Positions 224-54,682 of a stretch of DNA of 56,034 bases are shown here, piece after piece. The number at the start of each line of letters is the position of its first letter. Position 1 is the stretch's first letter. The position numbers were made by a program, and so were the translations under genes. Location of the stretch: assembly GCA_905234925.1 (NCBI GenBank), contig CAJOJJ010000001.1, forward strand, positions 1-56,034, written 5' to 3'. The notes under the pieces are model-generated. The model saw nothing but the letters and a program-made list of their open reading frames with translations, had not been told where the DNA came from and searched no databases. The DNA comes from an uncultured Endomicrobiia bacterium (GTDB lineage: Bacteria > Elusimicrobiota > Endomicrobiia > Endomicrobiales > Endomicrobiaceae).

Positions 224-571
224 TTACTTATGTTCCTTTTCCAATACTTTAATTTTATTTTTTAATTCAATATTTTCTTTTTCTAATTTTAAAATTTTAT
301 TTTCCAATTGCAATATTTTAAAATCCTTTTTATCAAGTTTTGATTTTTTATTATTATAATCAGAATTTTCAATAAAATAATTATAGTCTATATCTAAAAC
401 AGAAGAAATTTTTTTAATGGAATCAAGAGACGGATTTCTCACTCCGCTTATCCAATTTGTAATCATAGCTTTTGTTATTCCGAGCCTATCTGCAAGTTCC
501 CTTTGATTAATATCTTTTTCAAGCATAATCTTCTTAAATTGTTTACCAAAAAAACTTCTTTTCTTTTTCAT
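224..571 (-). CDS. XRE-family helix-turn-helix transcriptional regulator with coiled-coil C-terminal tail
   Basis: 115 aa. INQRELADRLGITKAMITNWISGVRNPSLDSIKKISSVL is a classic HTH_3 motif. The C-terminus LQLENKILKLEKENIELKNKIKVLEKE is leucine-zipper-like. Confidence 0.8.
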   Translation of the reverse strand: MKKKRSFFGKQFKKIMLEKDINQRELADRLGITKAMITNWISGVRNPSLDSIKKISSVLDIDYNYFIENSDYNNKKSKLDKKDFKILQLENKILKLEKENIELKNKIKVLEKEHK

Positions 572-597: not shown

Positions 598-626
598 TTG
601 ACTTTATCACTAAAATGTTGTAATAT
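598..626 (+). promoter_or_regulatory. candidate sigma70-type promoter facing the pilin-like gene, overlapping the XRE upstream region
   Basis: TTGACT (598-603), 17-nt spacer, TAATAT (621-626). Two 12-bp direct repeats TATTAATATATC at 624-635 and 644-655 overlap it. In AT-rich DNA, chance matches are common. Confidence 0.35.
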
Positions 627-806
627 TAATATATCTTAAGATGTATTAATATATCAAAAATTTTTAACAAAATATACAAGAATAAGCCGACCGGACTGCA
701 TTCATAGCAACAGTTTTGGGAATTAAACTGCAACATAGCAGCAACTTAATTTGACGATAAAATCATAGAACTTATAACTTATTTATCTCTCGGCTTATTA
801 TAGCAT

Positions 807-986
807 AAAAAATTGCCTTTGGCAATTTTTGGAAGATGGGAGGATTGGAAGAATAGAAAAAAAGGAATTTAATTAACATAGATTCCCGACCAACGGCTCT
901 TCGGGAATGACAAACGAAAGACAATGTAGAATGTACAATAAAATACAATTTATAAAAATGGATCCTGAATCAAGTTCAGGATGACA
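807..986. repeat. intergenic mosaic of repeat modules F, C, B, A and a B-like hairpin
   Basis: The modules are: F hairpin AAAAATTGCC-TTT-GGCAATTTTT (808-830); C octamers GGAAGATG GGAGGATT GGAAGAAT (831-856); B hairpin GATTCCCGACCAACGGCTCTTCGGGAATGACA (881-914); A heptamer-type ACAATGTAGAATGTACAATAAA (921-950); B-like hairpin ATCCTGAA-TCAAG-TTCAGGATGACA (960-986), directly before the pilin RBS. Confidence 0.85.
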
Positions 987-1000
987 AGAGGAGAAAATTT

Positions 1001-1636
1001 ATGAAAACATTAAACAACAAAAGACACCGGATTGCCACCGAAAAACAATGTGCAATGTATAATGTACAATGTACAATAAACGACAACGGCAATGAACGAC
1101 AATTAAAGACAACGTCGGCTCGCAATGACGACGAAACGGCAACGACGAGATGCCCGACAAAGACATTCGGGCATGACAGACGAGTCGGTTTTACCTTAGT
1201 AGAGTTGGTTATCACAATTGCTATTGTTATTATTTTGTCGGTGGTAAGTGTTCCGATTTACAGAGGATATATTGATAAGGCAAAAATGTCGGAGGGATAT
1301 GCGTTATTAGGAACTATTCTTTCAGCACAAAAAGCATATTTTTCAGAATATGGAAATTTCTTAGATGATTATCAAGGAAGCGGAGGAGTTTGTAAATTTA
1401 CTTCCAAAGATGAAGTTCTTGGAATAGATGCTCGTGGAAATAAGCATTTCACTCTTTTTTATTTTGATTATAGCGGAAATGCTTCATCAATTGGTAAATA
1501 TTTTTTTGAAGGTGATGTATTAATACCGAAAGACTTAACCACGAGTGGAAAAAATGTATTAAGAATGTATTACAACATAACAAGCGGAGCAACTGTTAAA
1601 GACATAGTTGCACAAGAAAATTGGTCTTTTGAGTAA
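1001..1636 (+). CDS. prepilin-type N-terminal cleavage/methylation domain protein (type IV pilin / pseudopilin-like) with an abnormally long 63-aa leader
   Basis: G|FTLVELVITIAIVIILSVVSVPIYRGYIDKAKMSEGY is the canonical prepilin cleavage/methylation motif plus hydrophobic helix. A strong RBS AGGAG lies 7 nt before the ATG at 1001. No ATG, GTG or TTG lies in frame between 1058 and the GFTL motif. Confidence 0.75.
   Translation: MKTLNNKRHRIATEKQCAMYNVQCTINDNGNERQLKTTSARNDDETATTRCPTKTFGHDRRVGFTLVELVITIAIVIILSVVSVPIYRGYIDKAKMSEGYALLGTILSAQKAYFSEYGNFLDDYQGSGGVCKFTSKDEVLGIDARGNKHFTLFYFDYSGNASSIGKYFFEGDVLIPKDLTTSGKNVLRMYYNITSGATVKDIVAQENWSFE
1025..1186 (+). repeat. repeat mosaic (modules A and B plus ACGACAA/CGGCAA filler) lying in frame inside the prepilin leader
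   Basis: CAATGTGCAATGTATAATGTACAATGTACAATAAAC (module A) and GATGCCCGACAAAGACATTCGGGCATGACAGA (module B variant). It is 162 bp = 54 codons with no stop, bounded by MKTLNNKR and GFTLVELV. Confidence 0.8.
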
Positions 1637-2651: not shown

Positions 2652-2813
2652 TAGCTGAGAACGAAAAAACTCGTTTTTCTTGGCTGAGTCGTGGACTTCG
2701 TCCACTCAGCTGAGAGATGATAGTTTTCGGTATTTTTTACTTTGTAAAAAATCTTTTATTATCAAAAAAATTTGCAAAGCAAATTTCACAACAAACTTAT
2801 CAGCTTATAAGCT
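2652..2813. repeat. repeat modules E and F plus a CTTATAAG palindrome between uppS and cdsA
   Basis: Module E is TAGCTGAG...CTGAGTCGTGGACTTCGTCCACTCAGCTGAGAG (2652-2716) with a nested hairpin. The F hairpin AAATTTGC-AAA-GCAAATTT is at 2768-2786. A perfect palindrome AGCTTATAAGCT lies near 2801-2812. Confidence 0.8.
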
Positions 2814-2822
2814 AAGTAATTG

Positions 2823-3557
2823 CTATGCAATTTTTCCAAAGCGGCGTTCTCTTTTCTGGTAATCCTTAATTGCCTTTATAAATTCTTCTTCATTAAAATC
2901 CGGCCACAAAACATCCGTCACATAAATTTCCGAATATGCTATCTGCCATAACAAAAAATTGGAAATTCTTTTCTCTCCCGACGTTCTTATCAACAAATCC
3001 GGATCGGGAAGATTTTTAGTATATAAACAATTTGAAAAATCTTCTTCCGTAGGATTTTTTATTCCTTTATCAATTAAACTTTTGCAAGCTCTTAAAATCT
3101 CTTGTCGAGAACCGTAATTTAAAGCAATATTTAAAATAAGAGCTTTATTATTTTTAGTCTTTTCTATTGCATCTTGAATATCTTTTTGAAGCTCTGCGGA
3201 CATTCTCGATATATCACCTATAACATTGAGAGATATATCGTTCCGAAGCATATTATCAAGCTCTTGTTTTAAATACAGTTTCAAAAGTTTCATAAGTCCT
3301 GAAACTTCGTCCTCAGGACGCTGCCAATTCTCCGTAGAAAATGCGTAAAGGGTCAAAACCTGAATATCAAGCTTTCTTGCAAACTCAACTATTTTCTTAA
3401 CGGTTTTGACCCCATTAGTATGTCCGAATAATCTGGGCATCAATTTTTTCTTTGCCCATCTGCCGTTGCCGTCCATAATTATTGCAATATGTTTAGGCAA
3501 CTTTGATAAATCCAATTGTTCTATTGAAGCCACTTTTTTACTTCTGAGAAATTGCAT
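2823..3557 (-). CDS. uppS: undecaprenyl (isoprenyl) diphosphate synthase
   Basis: HIAIIMDGNGRWA and RTSGEKRISNFLLWQIAYSE are UppS signatures. It sits between frr and cdsA as in most bacteria. Confidence 0.92.
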   Translation of the reverse strand: MQFLRSKKVASIEQLDLSKLPKHIAIIMDGNGRWAKKKLMPRLFGHTNGVKTVKKIVEFARKLDIQVLTLYAFSTENWQRPEDEVSGLMKLLKLYLKQELDNMLRNDISLNVIGDISRMSAELQKDIQDAIEKTKNNKALILNIALNYGSRQEILRACKSLIDKGIKNPTEEDFSNCLYTKNLPDPDLLIRTSGEKRISNFLLWQIAYSEIYVTDVLWPDFNEEEFIKAIKDYQKRERRFGKIA

Positions 3558-3711: not shown

Positions 3712-3766
3712 TTTCTCCCTCCATGAGAAATTTATAACGACAATATATAATAAACTGCAACAACGA

Positions 3767-3796
3767 GATTCCCGACAGAAACACTCGGGAATGACA
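3767..3796. repeat. module B REP-like hairpin between frr and the ferredoxin gene
   Basis: GATTCCCGACAGAAACACTCGGGAATGACA, with stem TTCCCGA/TCGGGAA. It is preceded by degenerate A-type sequence and followed by a small CAGCAC-TGT-GTGCTG hairpin. Confidence 0.8.
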
Positions 3797-3845
3797 GCAC
3801 TGTGTGCTGTTTACATACCTCTATAACTCAGCATTTCTTGAATGC

Positions 3846-4406
3846 TTATATTTTCAAAAGGTCTTCTTCTTTTTGTTTAACCAAATCATCTACCTTAGCT
3901 ATATAAGAATCGGTTAATTTCTGAATATCCGTTTCATATTTTTTTCTGTCGTCTTCCGTGATAGCTTTGTCTTTTTCAAGCTTCTTAACTTCATCAACGA
4001 TACGTCTTCTTTCGTTTCTGATTGCTATCTTATAATCTTCAGACATTTTATGAACAACTTTTATAATTTCTCTTCTTCTTTCCTCAGTAAGAGCAGGAAT
4101 TGAAATTCTGATAATTCTGCCGTCATTTACCGGAGTAAGCCCCAAATCGGATTTCAATATTGCTTTTTCTATTGCTGCAAGCTGAGACAAATCCCAAGGT
4201 CTTATTTCCAATGTTCTTCCGTCGGGAACACTAACGCCAGCAACCTGATTTAATGCAAGCAAAGAACCGTAACTTTCAACCTTTATTCCGTCTAAAAGAG
4301 CCGCATTTGCTCTGCCCGTTCTGACGGTAGAAAAATCATGTTTCACTTTTTCTATAGTTTTCTTCATAGCTTCTTCGCCGGAAGCCAAAATTTCTTTAGG
4401 TAACAT
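3846..4406 (-). CDS. frr: ribosome recycling factor
   Basis: Full-length Frr-like sequence (ANAALLDGIKVESYGS..., PALTEERRREIIKVV). The ATG at 4406 follows GGAG by 7 nt; the TTG at 4418 in the ORF track is part of that RBS. Confidence 0.92.
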   Translation of the reverse strand: MLPKEILASGEEAMKKTIEKVKHDFSTVRTGRANAALLDGIKVESYGSLLALNQVAGVSVPDGRTLEIRPWDLSQLAAIEKAILKSDLGLTPVNDGRIIRISIPALTEERRREIIKVVHKMSEDYKIAIRNERRRIVDEVKKLEKDKAITEDDRKKYETDIQKLTDSYIAKVDDLVKQKEEDLLKI

Positions 4407-25401: not shown

Positions 25402-25472
25402 CTCCTCCAATCTTCTAATCTTCCGGCATTCCGCCGTTTATTATACATTGTACATTATAAATTGTACATTAC
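25402..25472. repeat. modules C and A in reverse orientation
   Basis: CTCCTCCAATCTTCTAATCTTCC is the reverse complement of GGAAGATT-type octamers. TTATACATTGTACATTATAAATTGTACATT is the reverse complement of module A. Confidence 0.85.
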
Positions 25473-32064: not shown

Positions 32065-33408
32065 ATGAATAAAAATATTTTGGCTGTAATAGTTTCTTAT
32101 AATCCTGATAATTCAATAATTAAATTATATAATTCAATCAAAGAACAAGTTGATGAGTTAATAATTGTCGACAACGCATCAACGGAAGAAGAATCAAGAA
32201 AAATCTTAGAAGAGCTGTCTCAAAAATTGAAAATAATTTATAACAATAAAAATCTCGGTATTGCTACAGCATTAAATCAAGGTGCGAAATATGCAATAGA
32301 AAACGAATATAAATGGTTGTTGACTCTTGACCAAGACAGTGAATTTTTTCCCCACACTTACGAAACTTTGCTTGCTTCTTATAAAAATATGCCGGATAAA
32401 GACGATGTTATGCTGATTGCACCGAAATACAAAGAACGACAATGTATAATGTACAATGTACAATGTACAATAAAAGACAACGACAAAGAACGGCAATGTA
32501 CAATAAACGACAAAATGACAAAAGATTTGAAAATTAGAAAGGAAAGTAATGTTTTATGGAAAGAAGTTATATTAAATCTTACTTCAGGAAGTTTAATAAA
32601 GACTGAAAGTTTTAAGAAAATAGGATTTTTCGACGAGAAACTTTTTATAGATCAAGTTGATAACGATTATTGTTATCGTTTAAAAAAGGCAGGATACAAA
32701 ACAAAAATTGCACAGAATATTTTATTCCTGCACAAGCTCGGCAACTCAAAAAAGAAACTTTGGTTTATAATAACAAACCATTCACCGATAAGGAGATATT
32801 ATCTTGCAAGAAATTCGACCACAATGTTAAAAAGATATTTTTTCGTTGCTCCCTACACGACGGTAAGATACTTTTTGGGAGGAACAATTTTCGGTTGGAT
32901 AAAAATACTTTTATTTGAAAAAAATAAGTTTAAGAAGATTTTCTATGGGATAAAAGGAATGTTAGAGGAAGTATACAAACTTAATATCAAAAAAAACAAT
33001 ACTAAATCAATAAAAAAAATTATTCCTTTAAAAAATTTTTTAGGAAAAGAATTTATAGGATATTCAGGACAAGATGCAATAGATAAAATTTATAAAGAAA
33101 AACAAGGATATATAAAAAATGCTTTTTACAGAAAAGATATAGGATACATTACATTAGCTTGGGGAAATGAGGAAAGTGGATTGTGCCATATTATAAAAAG
33201 AAGAACTGAACAAAAAATTGATATTTCTATATTTTTATCCGATTTATCTGACATAATAATTAAAGGGAATTTATATAAAAACAAAAAAAGTTCTTCCAGA
33301 CGAAATATTTGGTATAATGGAAAAATCGTTATTATAGAAACAACATATTATGGAAAAAATTTAAATTGGATTGTATCGAGTTTTAACCAAAGAAAAGAAC
33401 CTAAATAA
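32065..33408 (+). CDS. family 2 glycosyltransferase (rhamnosyltransferase-like) fused to a ~120-aa C-terminal domain resembling BECR-fold (Barnase/EndoU/colicin-E5/RelE-like) nucleases
   Basis: The N-terminus ILAVIVSYNPDN...ELIIVDNAST...LLTLDQDS...FIDQVDNDYCYRLKKAGYK fits GT2. The C-terminus AIDKIYKEKQGYIKNAFYRKDIGYITLAWGNEESGLCHIIKRRTEQKID...WYNGKIVIIE...WIVSSFNQRK matches, from memory only, the PBECR-type motif. No stop codon separates the two parts. Confidence 0.75.
   Translation: MNKNILAVIVSYNPDNSIIKLYNSIKEQVDELIIVDNASTEEESRKILEELSQKLKIIYNNKNLGIATALNQGAKYAIENEYKWLLTLDQDSEFFPHTYETLLASYKNMPDKDDVMLIAPKYKERQCIMYNVQCTIKDNDKERQCTINDKMTKDLKIRKESNVLWKEVILNLTSGSLIKTESFKKIGFFDEKLFIDQVDNDYCYRLKKAGYKTKIAQNILFLHKLGNSKKKLWFIITNHSPIRRYYLARNSTTMLKRYFFVAPYTTVRYFLGGTIFGWIKILLFEKNKFKKIFYGIKGMLEEVYKLNIKKNNTKSIKKIIPLKNFLGKEFIGYSGQDAIDKIYKEKQGYIKNAFYRKDIGYITLAWGNEESGLCHIIKRRTEQKIDISIFLSDLSDIIIKGNLYKNKKSSSRRNIWYNGKIVIIETTYYGKNLNWIVSSFNQRKEPK
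32434..32523 (+). repeat. module A repeat inserted in frame inside the glycosyltransferase
   Basis: GAACGACAATGTATAATGTACAATGTACAATGTACAATAAAAGACAACGACAAAGAACGGCAATGTACAATAAACGACAAAATGACAAAAG is translated as ERQCIMYNVQCTIKDNDKERQCTINDKMTK. This is the same frame and near-identical peptide as in the pilin leader (EKQCAMYNVQCTINDNGNERQ). Confidence 0.85.
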
Positions 33409-52498: not shown

Positions 52499-54682
52499 AT
52501 GAAAAAAATACTTGTATCTGCCGCAATGTTTCTATTTTTCTTCAGCATGGTAAATGCTCAGGAAATCGTAAGGGAAAAAACTTTCAACTCAAATTTTGAC
52601 ACCACTGTAGATAAACTTGAAAAGAATTTGTCTAAGTACTACGGCAAAAATTTAGTAATCAGAACCAGTGTTTCTAACGGTAAAAAAGGCGGACATGCAA
52701 GCATTAATTGGGACACATCATATGATGAAAACGGAGAAAATCCGCAAAGAGATAAATTTAAGCTGTTTGTAAGAGAAAACGAAAAAAATTCAACAAGCGT
52801 AAAAATGTTCTATGACTTTGAATATACGTCAAACGGTTCTTATGTAAAACCTGACAGAGGGATGACGGCAGCACTGTATAATGATATGTGGACCGTTTTG
52901 GAAGCAGATTCCGTGAATGAAAAACAATTTAAGAAAGTTATTAACGGTAAAAATATAACTGCAGCCGACGGTAAGAAGAAAAAAGATAAAAAAAGCGACA
53001 AAAATAAATCTGCAGAAAAAAATACAAAATCGGATAAAAATAAAGAAACATTACAGCCCGTTGCAGCGATAAAAGCCGAAGATACGAAAAATTCAGCAGT
53101 TTCCAAAGAACCTAAAACGGAATCCGCAGAACCTGAAAAAGCTGAAATTTCCAAAGAACAAAAAACGGAAATTGTGTCGGATAAAGTACAAAAAGAACCC
53201 GTAAATGCAGCTGTTATCGACGAACCTAAAGAAGAATCGTTCGAAAAAACGGAAACAGAACTTAAAGCTGCCGGACCTGTTAAAACGGAGGTTATTGTTC
53301 CTGCAGTAGAAAAAGCAGAAACTTCAAAAGGAAAACAAAAAACAAACACTCCTCAAACTGAGCCTGTGGAAAGTATAGTACCTATTACTACGGAACCTGA
53401 AGAAGAAGTAAAAGAAGCTTTTGAAGCAGCAGAACAGGCAATAGAAAAAGCTCCGGTTATTTCACAAGCGGAACAGTCGGCTGAAGCTGCAGTTAAAGCA
53501 GAACAAATTATGGAAAAAGAAAAGATTTCCGAGTCCGCCGGCACCGTATCCTTAGGTGTTGCCGCTGCCGCATCCGTTCAGACTCAAAAAAATGAGGATG
53601 AAACCATAGATATTAAACAAAAAAAGTCTGAGGCTGCCGCTAAGAAGCAGAAAGAAAAAGAAGAGCGAAAAGCACAGAAACTTAAAGAAAAAGAAGAGTT
53701 AAAGAAACAGAAAGAAGAGCAGGCTGCCCAAAAACTAAAAGAAAAAGAAGAATTGGCTGCAAAGAAAGAACAGGAAAGGCAAGCCGTTCTTGCCGAAAAA
53801 ATGCAGAAACAGGAAGAAGCTAAAAAACTGAAAGAGGAACAGGCTGCGAAAAAACTTCAAGAAAAAGAAGAGTTAAAGAAACAGAAAGAAGAGTTGGCTG
53901 CAAAAAAACTGAAAGAAAAAGAAGAATTAAAGAAACAGAAAGAAGAACAAGCTGCCCAAAAACTGAAAGAAAAAGAAGAGTTGACTGCAAAGAAAGAACA
54001 GGAAAGGCAAGCCGTTCTTGCCGTAAAACTTCAGCAAAAAGAAGAAGCAAAAAAACAGAAAGAAGAGTTAGCTGCTCAGAAACAGAAAGAAAAAGAAGAT
54101 AAAATAAAAGAACAGGAAGAAGCCAAGAGACTAAGAGAAGAGGCAAAACAAAAAGAGAAAGAAGAATTGGCTGCAAAGAAACTGCAGGAAGAAGAAGATT
54201 TAAAGAAACAGAAAGAAGCAGAACTTGCCGCAATCAAGCAAAAAGAAGAAGAGGATGCAAGAAGGCAGGAAGCAGAAGTTGCCGCAGCAGACTTGCAAAG
54301 AAAGCAGCAAAAACAGAAAGAAAAAGAAAATTTGGAAAAATCCAAAAGCAGAACATATGATATTTCTTATTATAAAGTATATTCCACTATGTTGGAAAAT
54401 GTTTCCAAAAATGTTAAAGGTATAGAAACTGCTGATGAAGAAAACGGTATAATCGTTACGGATTGGACCTATTCCGGAAATGCTTTACAATCACATAAAG
54501 CAAAAAGAAGATTTAAAATTACGTTAAGATTTACCGAAATTTCCGAAAACAAGACAGGTGTTTCGGCACAAACGGAATTTGAAACATTCTTGATTGATTG
54601 GAAGAAGCAAGTTTTAAAAGATACATTCCTGACAGATTATTATAACTCTCTGTTTAATGATTTGGAGGAAGGGCTTAAATAA
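52499..54682 (+). CDS. secreted 727-aa protein: two related globular end domains separated by a long Lys/Glu/Ala-rich repeat (TolA-domain-II-like) spacer
   Basis: The signal peptide is MKKILVSAAMFLFFFSMVNA. The central ~400 aa are low complexity with 18-aa units A[QK]KL[KQ]EKEELKKQKEE[QL]A. The N- and C-terminal ~110-aa domains share the same pattern (…WDTSY…FKLFVRENE… versus …TDWTYSG…FKITLRFTE…). Confidence 0.7.
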   Translation: MKKILVSAAMFLFFFSMVNAQEIVREKTFNSNFDTTVDKLEKNLSKYYGKNLVIRTSVSNGKKGGHASINWDTSYDENGENPQRDKFKLFVRENEKNSTSVKMFYDFEYTSNGSYVKPDRGMTAALYNDMWTVLEADSVNEKQFKKVINGKNITAADGKKKKDKKSDKNKSAEKNTKSDKNKETLQPVAAIKAEDTKNSAVSKEPKTESAEPEKAEISKEQKTEIVSDKVQKEPVNAAVIDEPKEESFEKTETELKAAGPVKTEVIVPAVEKAETSKGKQKTNTPQTEPVESIVPITTEPEEEVKEAFEAAEQAIEKAPVISQAEQSAEAAVKAEQIMEKEKISESAGTVSLGVAAAASVQTQKNEDETIDIKQKKSEAAAKKQKEKEERKAQKLKEKEELKKQKEEQAAQKLKEKEELAAKKEQERQAVLAEKMQKQEEAKKLKEEQAAKKLQEKEELKKQKEELAAKKLKEKEELKKQKEEQAAQKLKEKEELTAKKEQERQAVLAVKLQQKEEAKKQKEELAAQKQKEKEDKIKEQEEAKRLREEAKQKEKEELAAKKLQEEEDLKKQKEAELAAIKQKEEEDARRQEAEVAAADLQRKQQKQKEKENLEKSKSRTYDISYYKVYSTMLENVSKNVKGIETADEENGIIVTDWTYSGNALQSHKAKRRFKITLRFTEISENKTGVSAQTEFETFLIDWKKQVLKDTFLTDYYNSLFNDLEEGLK
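53684..54139 (+). repeat. coding tandem duplication, 2 x 228 bp, itself built of 54-bp sub-repeats
   Basis: AAAGAAAAAGAAGAGTTAAAGAAACAGAAAGAAGAGCAGGCTGCCCAAAAACT... at 53684 recurs at 53912 with few substitutions. This includes the block GAACAGGAAAGGCAAGCCGTTCTTGCCG. Confidence 0.85.

Follow-up and report, generated by a model that had tools for sequence, protein, structure and literature searches.

How can the gene for a predicted type IV pilin carry 162 nt of dispersed repeat DNA inside the leader peptide that precedes the pilin proper? This question is raised by an open reading frame (ORF) of 211 aa at positions 1001..1636 (+ strand) of contig CAJOJJ010000001.1 from an uncultured rumen bacterium of the Endomicrobiia, which was analysed as a window of 56,034 nt (34.8% G+C). 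In this ORF the basic start MKTLNNKR (1001..1024, +), the original N-terminus of the leader, is separated from the prepilin cleavage site by an in-frame mosaic of 54 codons (HRIATEKQCAMYNVQCTINDNGNERQLKTTSARNDDETATTRCPTKTFGHDRRV, 1025..1186, +) that is assembled from the repeat modules of the genome itself. The explanation that we favour, with a probability of about 0.68, is that the mosaic represents in-frame repeat DNA of the kind known as Rickettsia palindromic elements (RPEs), tolerated here in a cytoplasmic leader that would be removed by prepilin peptidase.

The pilin gene and its leader

The ORF opens with an ATG at 1001, 7 nt downstream of an AGGAG ribosome-binding site (989..993, +), as an earlier note on this sequence had described. 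After the mosaic, the codons starting at 1187 read GGT TTT ACC TTA GTA GAG, that is, G/FTLVE, the beginning of the cleavage/methylation motif G/FTLVELV, with the codon of Gly-1 at 1187-1189 and that of Phe+1 at 1190, which gives a leader of 63 residues. Within 1025-1186 the frame of the ORF is the sole open frame of the + strand (the other two hold 2 and 4 stop codons), and composition-matched shuffles of this segment, which is T-poor (23 T in 162 nt) at 47% G+C, remain open in 6.6% of trials. An in-frame ATG within the mosaic, at 1055, lacks a Shine-Dalgarno sequence, and the codon list contains no ATG, GTG or TTG past it, which rules out alternative start codons for the mature pilin and upholds the proposal that the repeat is the sole route to it. 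Since this is the only stop-free frame and there is no other start, the prepilin would have to be translated from the ATG at 1001 through the repeats. Removal of 1025-1186 in silico restores MKTLNNKR-G, which, as had been anticipated, resembles the short leaders of 47 homologues (for example, MKRKLKG and MNILKRSRG); the 63-residue leader itself is hydrophilic, with a net charge of +5 overall and +1 over residues -6 to -1, and far exceeds the classic length of 6-7 residues. The factual statements of the earlier note on the ORF, its frame, its starts and its repeat content are all borne out.

The codon for Gly-1, the mature pilin (148 aa, FTLVELVITIAIVIILSV...) and the stop codon occupy 1187..1636 (+). 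Class III signal peptides carry Gly or Ala at -1, a hydrophobic residue at +1 and Glu at +5, followed by the 20-25 mainly hydrophobic residues of alpha1-N (PMC10191384). The ORF has Gly63 at -1, Phe at +1 and Glu at +5 (G63/FTLVE, codons 1187-1204), and the hydrophobic stretch after the cleavage site is FTLVELVITIAIVIILSVVSVPIY. In an alignment with 25 homologues, the mature part matches every residue of the 37 invariant columns. Residues 59-126 match pilin and pseudopilin models of NCBIfam, and residues 63-82 match Pfam N_methyl, in each case with scores below the curated cut-offs. An AlphaFold2 model built on 45 sequences has a mean pLDDT (predicted local distance difference test) of 84.7, with values above 90 for a 52-residue helix (residues 66-117) and a five-stranded sheet, and predicts the lollipop fold in which a long N-terminal helix packs on a beta-sheet; within the leader, the values are about 49-54 for residues 31-60 and 71-76 for residues 1-30. 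The top Foldseek matches of the model are the PAK pilin (1oqw, probability 0.99 with a weak E value of 6.7e-3) and the PAO1 pilus (8tum, likewise with a weak E value). Taken together, sequence and model predict that the gene product is a type IV pilin.

The insert is built of repeats that occur elsewhere in the window: 1040-1103 shares 86% identity with 32434-32497, and 1141-1179 shares 85% with 3759-3797. The earlier note had parsed it into module A, an ACGAC filler and a B-type hairpin. These parts stand, with the refinement that module A is nested in the loop of a further hairpin, C, that had gone unnoticed. The 5' arm of C (GGATTGCCACCGA, 1029..1041, +) pairs with 1114-1126, and its 3' arm (GTCGGCTCGCAAT) together with a conserved GAC occupies 1114..1129 (+), C being an imperfect hairpin. 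In its loop lie module A, which consists of four AATGTRY heptamers and AATAAAC (1047..1081, +; repeat family D6), and the ACG-rich filler (1082..1113, +), which is 86% identical to 32476-32497 and part of family D7. A second filler (GACGAAACGGCAACGACGA, 1130..1148, +), identical by eye in the paralogous locus L086 (L and P labels denote loci and pilin proteins, respectively), leads to the hairpin that had been called B-type. It is indeed present, as a stem variant, ATGCCCGA...TCGGGCAT, that is nearly exclusive to pilin leaders and that we designate B*. Hairpin B* (1149..1177, +) has an 8-bp stem (ATGCCCGA/TCGGGCAT), a 9-nt loop and a terminal GAC, encodes CPTKTFGHD, and is predicted in both the minimum free energy and the centroid folds. 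The tail of the B module and a variable codon (AGA CGA GTC, 1178..1186, +) complete the insert, AGAC being conserved and the rest differing among paralogues. No Rfam family matched in positions 1-2000 of the window.

The same 211-aa protein and the same ORF DNA are found in three other metagenome assemblies (ERZ1667847, ERZ27234819 and ERZ28573574). Two of them show zero differences from the window across 4.3-4.6 kb; the only differences in the third, over 4.6 kb, are a deletion of 3 nt and an insertion of 16 nt (locus L087; window positions 2764-2766 and 2795), both in the octamer array between uppS and cdsA. The insertion comprises two octamer units (CTTATCAG CTTATCAT), so the octamer arrays behave as variable-number tandem repeats. 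The pilin leader is identical in all four assemblies, with no repeat-number polymorphism. A frameshift, which the earlier note had named as a sign of a pseudogene, is absent from the three independent assemblies, and their identical sequence indicates that the insert is not an assembly artefact.

Repeat-built leaders among pilin paralogues

Members of this pilin family were found in only three metagenome-assembled genomes (MAGs) of the genome collection, namely the 'uncultured Elusimicrobia' CALGGE01, the rumen 'Endomicrobia' CAJOOL01 and Ca. Ruminimicrobiellum caprinum, with dozens of paralogues in each of the first two and one locus in the last. Among the best 119 homologues, which constituted our family survey, the leader comprises 3-15 residues in 47 (for example, MKRKLKG/FTLVELV) and 16-102 residues in the other 72. 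Peptide modules derived from repeats were recognized in 70 of the 72 long leaders and in none of the 47 short ones. Long leaders without repeats in related genes had been named as evidence that would speak against a repeat insertion; long leaders do exist in relatives, and all except two of them are built of repeats. The recurrent peptides are CPTKTFGHD (encoded by B*), IATPTxSARND (C), KCTMYNVQCTTND (A) and SSVIPE (another hairpin), along with the products of octamer arrays, such as LKSLEAEELKSL and MYRCMEE; the B*-encoded signature CPTxxxGHD alone is present in 51 of the 72. All 72 long leaders carry a net positive charge (+1 to +10), and the residue at -1 is Gly in 101 and Ala in 18 of the 119 homologues, both legitimate for prepilins. 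By these sequences, the repeat-built leader is a family-wide phenomenon and not a single event.

A tblastn sample that did not depend on a gene caller yielded about 65 pilin loci away from contig edges in MAGs from the genome collection, two of which contributed almost all the loci. An in-frame ATG is present in all but one of them, L020, which has only an in-frame GTG, and no out-of-frame pilin variant was seen among these loci. At L008:2240-2500, which has neither the canonical MKxL start nor a ribosome-binding site, a repeat-filled frame opens directly after the stop codon of the preceding gene; this locus may represent a pilin copy that is silent or in decay. The 5' ends of pilin genes are where many contigs of these Endomicrobiaceae MAGs terminate, likely because of the repeats. 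A scan of JGI metagenomes returned distant pilins only, none of them from this lineage.

The cassette formed by the pilin gene and the adjacent regulator gene is absent from the cdsA-dxr site of the nearest relatives, so there is neither a true orthologue nor an orthologous empty site to compare, and the history of the leader had to be read from paralogues. The window and loci L082, L084 and L086, in contrast to L081, share the ribosome-binding site and start (AGGAGAAAATTTATGAAAA..TTAAACAA.AAAAGA), with AGGAG kept in L084 and L086 and a common MK(T/R)LN(N/K)KR start, MKTLNNKR being aligned with MKRLNKKR in L084 and L086 and with LNDKR in L082. L081 has the leader MDKNG without any insert; by eye, its mature part begins with 47 nt that are identical to those of the window, and its upstream region resembles window positions ~560-915 (an unscored comparison), including a generic B hairpin whose stem has a compensatory change. 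The leader of L084 (28 aa) contains C only, and that of L086 (41 aa) contains C, the filler and B*, C being uninterrupted in both. The L086 leader agrees with the window at 110 of 123 aligned nucleotides, the window being longer by a net 66 nt that hold the A module missing from L086. The 102-aa leader of L082 contains the composite of C with nested A just as in the window (101 of 106 nt, or 95%, identical; the mature parts are 73-77% identical) and, after codon 3, a further 60-nt in-frame insert made of a palindrome and octamers, plus other hairpins. Each length difference in this step series is a multiple of three. The in-frame insertion of repeats into the leader that the earlier note had proposed is thus supported by modules that are present or absent, in frame, among L081, L084 and L086. 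The junctions of the nested A insert are ambiguous when compared with the empty loop of L086, and no terminal inverted repeat was seen in that comparison.

Whole leaders also appear to be exchanged. Proteins P0011 and P0106 are identical at 137 of the 139 residues of the mature part (our own count) and carry unrelated leaders of 72 and 52 aa; their genes are 99.1% identical across 2,051 nt from the cleavage site, and the mismatches, judged by eye, crowd the first ~45 nt of the mature part. Near-identical mature pilins with unrelated leaders point to exchange of 5' cassettes, and the pattern fits a crossover inside the conserved region that encodes alpha1-N. B* and C may have reached the gene studied here through such exchange among pilin genes instead of by fresh insertion; a tree built from the mature domains came out star-like and uninformative as to when B* was inserted. 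L131:1-560 and L132:1-300 hold two alleles of one pilin gene that are 99.1% identical from the cleavage site on and share the downstream AAA_14/DUF4143 gene, with leaders and upstream DNA that are unrelated; in L132 the leader (MLDYLFPLFYNQHVIPCHSERSEESRR...) does not have the usual basic MK start.

Repeat families, the pilin locus and its lineage

The modular repeats of this genome comprise hairpins of the form GAT-stem-loop-stem-ATGAC, (AATGTAC)n heptamer arrays, octamer arrays, AT-rich palindromes and ACG-rich fillers. Module A, in general (AATGTAC/AATGTAT)n followed by AATAAACGACAA, has seven copies on the + strand of the window and two on the - strand. Copies of the hairpin module (family D14) start at 881, 3759, 4458, 7677 and 14090, and more repeat copies are present in related genomes. 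At position 3 of the hairpin stem we counted 21 T-A, 20 C-G, 19 G-C and 2 other combinations, so that 60 of 62 copies are paired; covariation across three types of Watson-Crick pair shows that the hairpin is real.

The gaps of the pyrH-frr-fdx-uppS-cdsA operon (frr-fdx, pyrH-frr and uppS-cdsA) illustrate how these modules come and go. In L127 the gaps measure 19-74 nt and contain neither hairpins nor heptamer arrays, the uppS-cdsA gap holding a short octamer run; in L128 they measure 25 nt (frr-fdx), 10 nt (pyrH-frr) and 169 nt (uppS-cdsA), the last containing its own repeats. In the window, a B hairpin lies in both frr-fdx and pyrH-frr and a mosaic of octamers and palindromes in uppS-cdsA, and L125, whose CdsA is 89% identical to that of the window, has at the same gaps arrays of up to about nine heptamers, fillers and octamers (the large arrays lie at 2899-3166, 3727-3958 and 4844-5000 of L125). 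By this comparison, the repeat modules are insertional and fast-evolving.

The pilin leader is not the only coding sequence to house them. The second in-frame copy of module A in the window (ERQCIMYNVQCTIKDNDKERQCTINDK, 32434..32514, +) lies inside a rhamnosyltransferase gene (32065-33408, +) whose product matches TIGR01556 with 185 bits over profile positions 1-279 of 281, and it is read there in the same frame as in the pilin leader. Deletion of the 27 repeat-encoded residues lowers the TIGR01556 score from 185.1 to 177.2, which argues that this is not a clean, pure insertion; the insert probably replaces part of a native loop. No relative of this protein was found in the PDB by sequence. 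The same ORF runs on into a C-terminal domain that resembles PBECR1 nucleases (residues 353-445), an odd fusion. In L035 (- strand, ~4028-4054), from the CALGGE MAG, a methyltransferase that looks RlmD/TrmA-like by eye has an in-frame insert of ~35 residues that opens with module A (...EFSFYN[NVQCTMYNVQ]STINNKTPQPP...). A search with the repeat-encoded peptide alone returned no candidates from the word index, and an exhaustive HMMER search returned one chance match to an unrelated repeat protein.

With respect to mobility, a Pfam scan of 20 of the 52 ORFs of the window plus the pilin detected no Y1 transposase. A REP-associated tyrosine transposase (RAYT; REP, repetitive extragenic palindrome) was considered as the mover of the hairpins; the one candidate seen, the product of a Y1 transposase gene near L086, was rejected as such: it matches the IS200 equivalog model (137.7 bits) and scores 41.3 with the RAYT model against a cut-off of 80. 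This IS200-type gene (L086:2713-3156) lies 3 kb from the long-leader pilin gene and ~470 nt from a repeat mosaic and has no flanking hairpins; with a score below the RAYT cut-off, it provides no evidence that its product moves hairpins.

Nearly all repeat copies of the window have their T-poor strand on +, regardless of the direction of the adjacent gene (+ at 823, 1025, 3759, 4458, 7628, 14055, 18488, 32434 and 50226; - at 25444 and 52336). Gene orientation and GC skew both flip sign at ~45-48 kb, a switch that may mark a replication origin or terminus, and the orientation of the repeats may follow the replication strand. A tandem repeat of another kind, a degenerate one of 27/54 nt that is rich in Lys and Glu codons (AAAGAAAAAGAAGAA...), occupies 53618-54340 within a 727-aa ORF (52499-54682, +) that has no Pfam match.

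The CdsA protein encoded in the window shares 76% identity with its counterpart in Ca. Ruminimicrobiellum ovillum, and the organism belongs to the ruminant clade of Endomicrobiaceae (Elusimicrobiota). Pilins are the only cell appendages encoded in this clade (PMC11257099). Divergently oriented from the pilin gene is a gene for an XRE-type helix-turn-helix (HTH) regulator of 115 aa (224..571, -; Pfam HTH_3, E value 9e-15). This divergent pair, which recurs at L081, L084/L085 and L086 and seems to move or duplicate as a unit, is located in the window between cdsA and the start of dxr, the latter as we read bases 1-90. Next to the most similar CdsA orthologues (89%, 81% and 76% identity), the site between cdsA and dxr lacks a pilin gene altogether: cdsA abuts dxr in L127, and the site holds an ECF (extracytoplasmic function) sigma/anti-sigma factor pair in L125 and alaS in L128. 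By these comparisons, the HTH-pilin cassette is thus lineage-specific.

The region between the two genes contains a tentative sigma-70-like promoter for the pilin gene, TTGACT-17-TAATAT (598..626, +), with 9 of 12 consensus matches, a number not above that of shuffled sequences. It would give a 5' untranslated region (UTR) of ~365 nt, and a similar TTGACT...TATAAT is found at the equivalent place of L081, which is weak evidence. For the HTH gene, a promoter-like site TTGCCA-17-TATAAT with TG before the second hexamer (797..825, -) matches the consensus at 11 of 12 positions, and its TGCTATAAT element recurs in L081, L086 and L082. Transcripts from the two promoter-like sites would have overlapping antisense 5' UTRs. 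An 18-nt inverted repeat (673-690 and 790-807, AAGCCGA.../...TCGGCTT) encloses ~100 nt between the two genes, and L081 shows a comparable pairing. The 5' UTR of the pilin gene has a repeat mosaic of its own (808..985, +), which is non-coding, with stop codons in all three frames. Within it, an AT-rich palindrome at 808-830 is followed by an array of octamers (GGAAGATG/GGAGGATT/GGAAGAAT) at 831-854, a B hairpin of the generic type at 881-911, two heptamers of type A at 923-943 and, at 961-985, hairpin D.

Competing explanations and known systems

Class III leaders are hydrophilic, vary in length, end in Gly or Ala, and remain cytoplasmic by the positive-inside rule, and prepilin peptidase cuts them off at the cytoplasmic face of the membrane (PMC10191384). 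In the explanation that we favour, the 162 nt of modules between MKTLNNKR and Gly-1 would be translated through from the ATG at 1001. Because the leader is cytoplasmic and clipped off, added hydrophilic residues should not reach the mature pilin, and as long as they are hydrophilic and net-positive they need not disturb targeting or the mature protein. The leader would then be a permissive site in which in-frame, stop-free repeat DNA survives, and the 5' ends of the pilin paralogues would gain, lose and swap modules fast, by insertion, by slippage of arrays and by recombination in the alpha1-N coding region.

Several observations weigh against this explanation. At full length, the protein scores 17.6 with PF07963 (cut-off 21.2) and 13.9 with TIGR02532 (cut-off 16.3); most short-leader homologues carry a precomputed PF07963 match, and the repeat-built leaders are what would bring these genes under the threshold of the Pfam and TIGRFAM motif models. 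The window, the part of the genome that was searched, contains no prepilin peptidase gene, and neither a transposase nor a target-site duplication nor any other mechanism of insertion was identified for the repeats. One anomaly concerns B*. Its stem variant is found in pilin leaders in 16 of 17 cases, the generic variants ATTCCCGA and ATCCCCGA being the ones used elsewhere; it lies exactly 12 nt before the Phe+1 codon in 13 loci (from the CALGGE01 and CAJOOL01 MAGs, the ERZ28573574 metagenome and the window); and its loop is 86% identical between copies, as against 50% at third positions of the next 40 mature codons. This confinement, fixed placement and conservation fit poorly with purely neutral junk. 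The pattern of B* could result from selection for the palindrome, from short-patch conversion among leaders or from site-specific insertion. Hairpin C, for its part, was found only in pilin leaders.

The anomaly of B* lends itself to the alternative that survives best, a minor but real possibility, in which the leader repeats are regulatory, acting either through phase variation by array slippage or through B* as a cis element, for example an RNA hairpin or an operator for the HTH regulator, that chooses among the pilin paralogues. Not only is B* leader-specific, evenly spaced from the cleavage site in every copy and conserved beyond nearby synonymous sites, but arrays of 7-nt and 8-nt units, which are not multiples of 3, lie inside coding leaders. 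Judged by eye, the number of heptamers varies from 2 to 5 across loci, with the coding copies examined differing by whole sets of three units, and an octamer array shifts by two units (16 nt) between near-identical assemblies; such changes by whole units make frame-switching possible in leaders that bear arrays. There is also a precedent in Streptococcus gallolyticus, in which repeats in a leader peptide switch pili on and off (PMC3894217). The leader in the window, however, has only four heptamers, few for efficient slippage, and no octamer array; it is identical in four assemblies, no pilin is out of frame among the ~65 loci, and these modules are also frequent between genes that have no relation to pili. 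A related proposal, that the repeat leaders, with B* and slippage-prone arrays, are exchangeable 5' control cassettes that set which pilins are made and are moved by recombination in the alpha1-N region, we regard as doubtful.

That the gene is a silent or decaying copy, its insert blocking targeting or cleavage and its open frame reflecting a young, undegraded state, is improbable. Dozens of paralogues could render single copies dispensable, and among them L008 lacks a canonical start and L132 has an atypical, non-basic one. Here, by contrast, the mature part is full length with all invariant residues and a confident pilin model, the ribosome-binding site and ATG are intact and conserved, and 72 of 119 relatives from many samples have open, long, net-positive leaders, which would be unexpected for independent pseudogenes. 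We consider it most improbable that the leader is a functional propeptide selected as protein, with CPTKTFGHD, for example, read by a chaperone or a dedicated peptidase and the likeness to repeats being secondary. The fixed distance of CPTxxxGHD from the cleavage site and its frequency in long leaders are what such a role would predict, yet the changes in the B* loop show no preference for third codon positions (our own reading), the stem uses GGG, a rare Gly codon (7% in the window), stems covary as base pairs, the same sequences are non-coding elsewhere, and near-identical pilins bear unrelated leaders. A chimeric 5' end from collapsed or misjoined repeats is scarcely credible, for even though repeats do break assemblies and many contigs of related MAGs stop exactly at pilin 5' ends, the same 636-nt ORF was obtained in three assemblies from other samples and assemblers, two of them identical over >4 kb.

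If leader-borne repeats are indeed tolerated as we propose, they would carry the concept of selfish intragenic DNA over to a signal sequence, and the prepilin leader would be a natural safe harbour in which 20 to ~95 additional residues of arbitrary peptide encoded by repeats are tolerated. The leaders of 3-102 residues on near-identical cleavage sites form a natural series with which the needs of prepilin peptidase and of the signal recognition particle/Sec route could be probed. Should the leader cassettes control expression, they would provide an uncultured gut lineage with a new route of pilus variation that acts on a part of the protein that is thrown away.

Among known repeats, the REPs and bacterial interspersed mosaic elements (BIMEs) of enterobacteria and pseudomonads are similar in being imperfect palindromes with conserved flanks that form mosaics, lie mostly between genes in operons and are present or absent between close relatives; they differ in their association with RAYTs, none of which was found here among the window ORFs scanned and the L086 neighbour. 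To our knowledge, REPs are extragenic by definition, and heptamer and octamer arrays are not part of BIMEs. In the opa genes of Neisseria, CTCTT repeats in the signal-peptide region switch a surface protein on and off. The pil1 gene of S. gallolyticus has GCAGA repeats in its leader peptide (PMC3894217). Like the arrays described here, the opa and pil1 repeats are tandem units of a length not divisible by three in the leader-coding part of a gene for a surface structure; unlike them, the leader in the window shows no length polymorphism, its arrays are short, and the same arrays are common in non-coding DNA. As far as we know, the long prepilin leaders described so far comprise ~15-30 residues of gene-specific sequence. 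T4b pilins and the T4a major pilins of S. sanguinis share with the present family a class III leader of more than 6-7 residues, which is cleaved after Gly or Ala in those systems (PMC10191384); here the leaders made of dispersed genomic repeats run to 26-102 residues. Full-text literature searches, which covered few subscription papers, turned up in-frame repeats in proteins, the long leaders of T4b and S. sanguinis pilins and repeat switches in leader peptides of sortase pili, and returned no report of dispersed repeats in a signal or prepilin leader peptide, which is weak evidence of novelty. The closest parallel is offered by RPEs, ERIC, BOX and the QMITE1 element of Coxiella, which are likewise short, multi-copy palindromic repeats known to insert in frame into genes without disrupting them, where they encode a hydrophilic peptide and have insert-free homologues (PMC10969869). 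RPEs persist in surface loops of proteins much as the present repeats persist in a leader segment that would be discarded. The RPE is, however, a unit of ~150 bp, in contrast to the mosaics of very short modules with variable tandem arrays found here, and the present elements concentrate in one cleaved-off leader site that recurs across a multigene family. What is new, then, would be the combination of RPE-like in-frame repeats with a distinctive preference of site, the prepilin leader.

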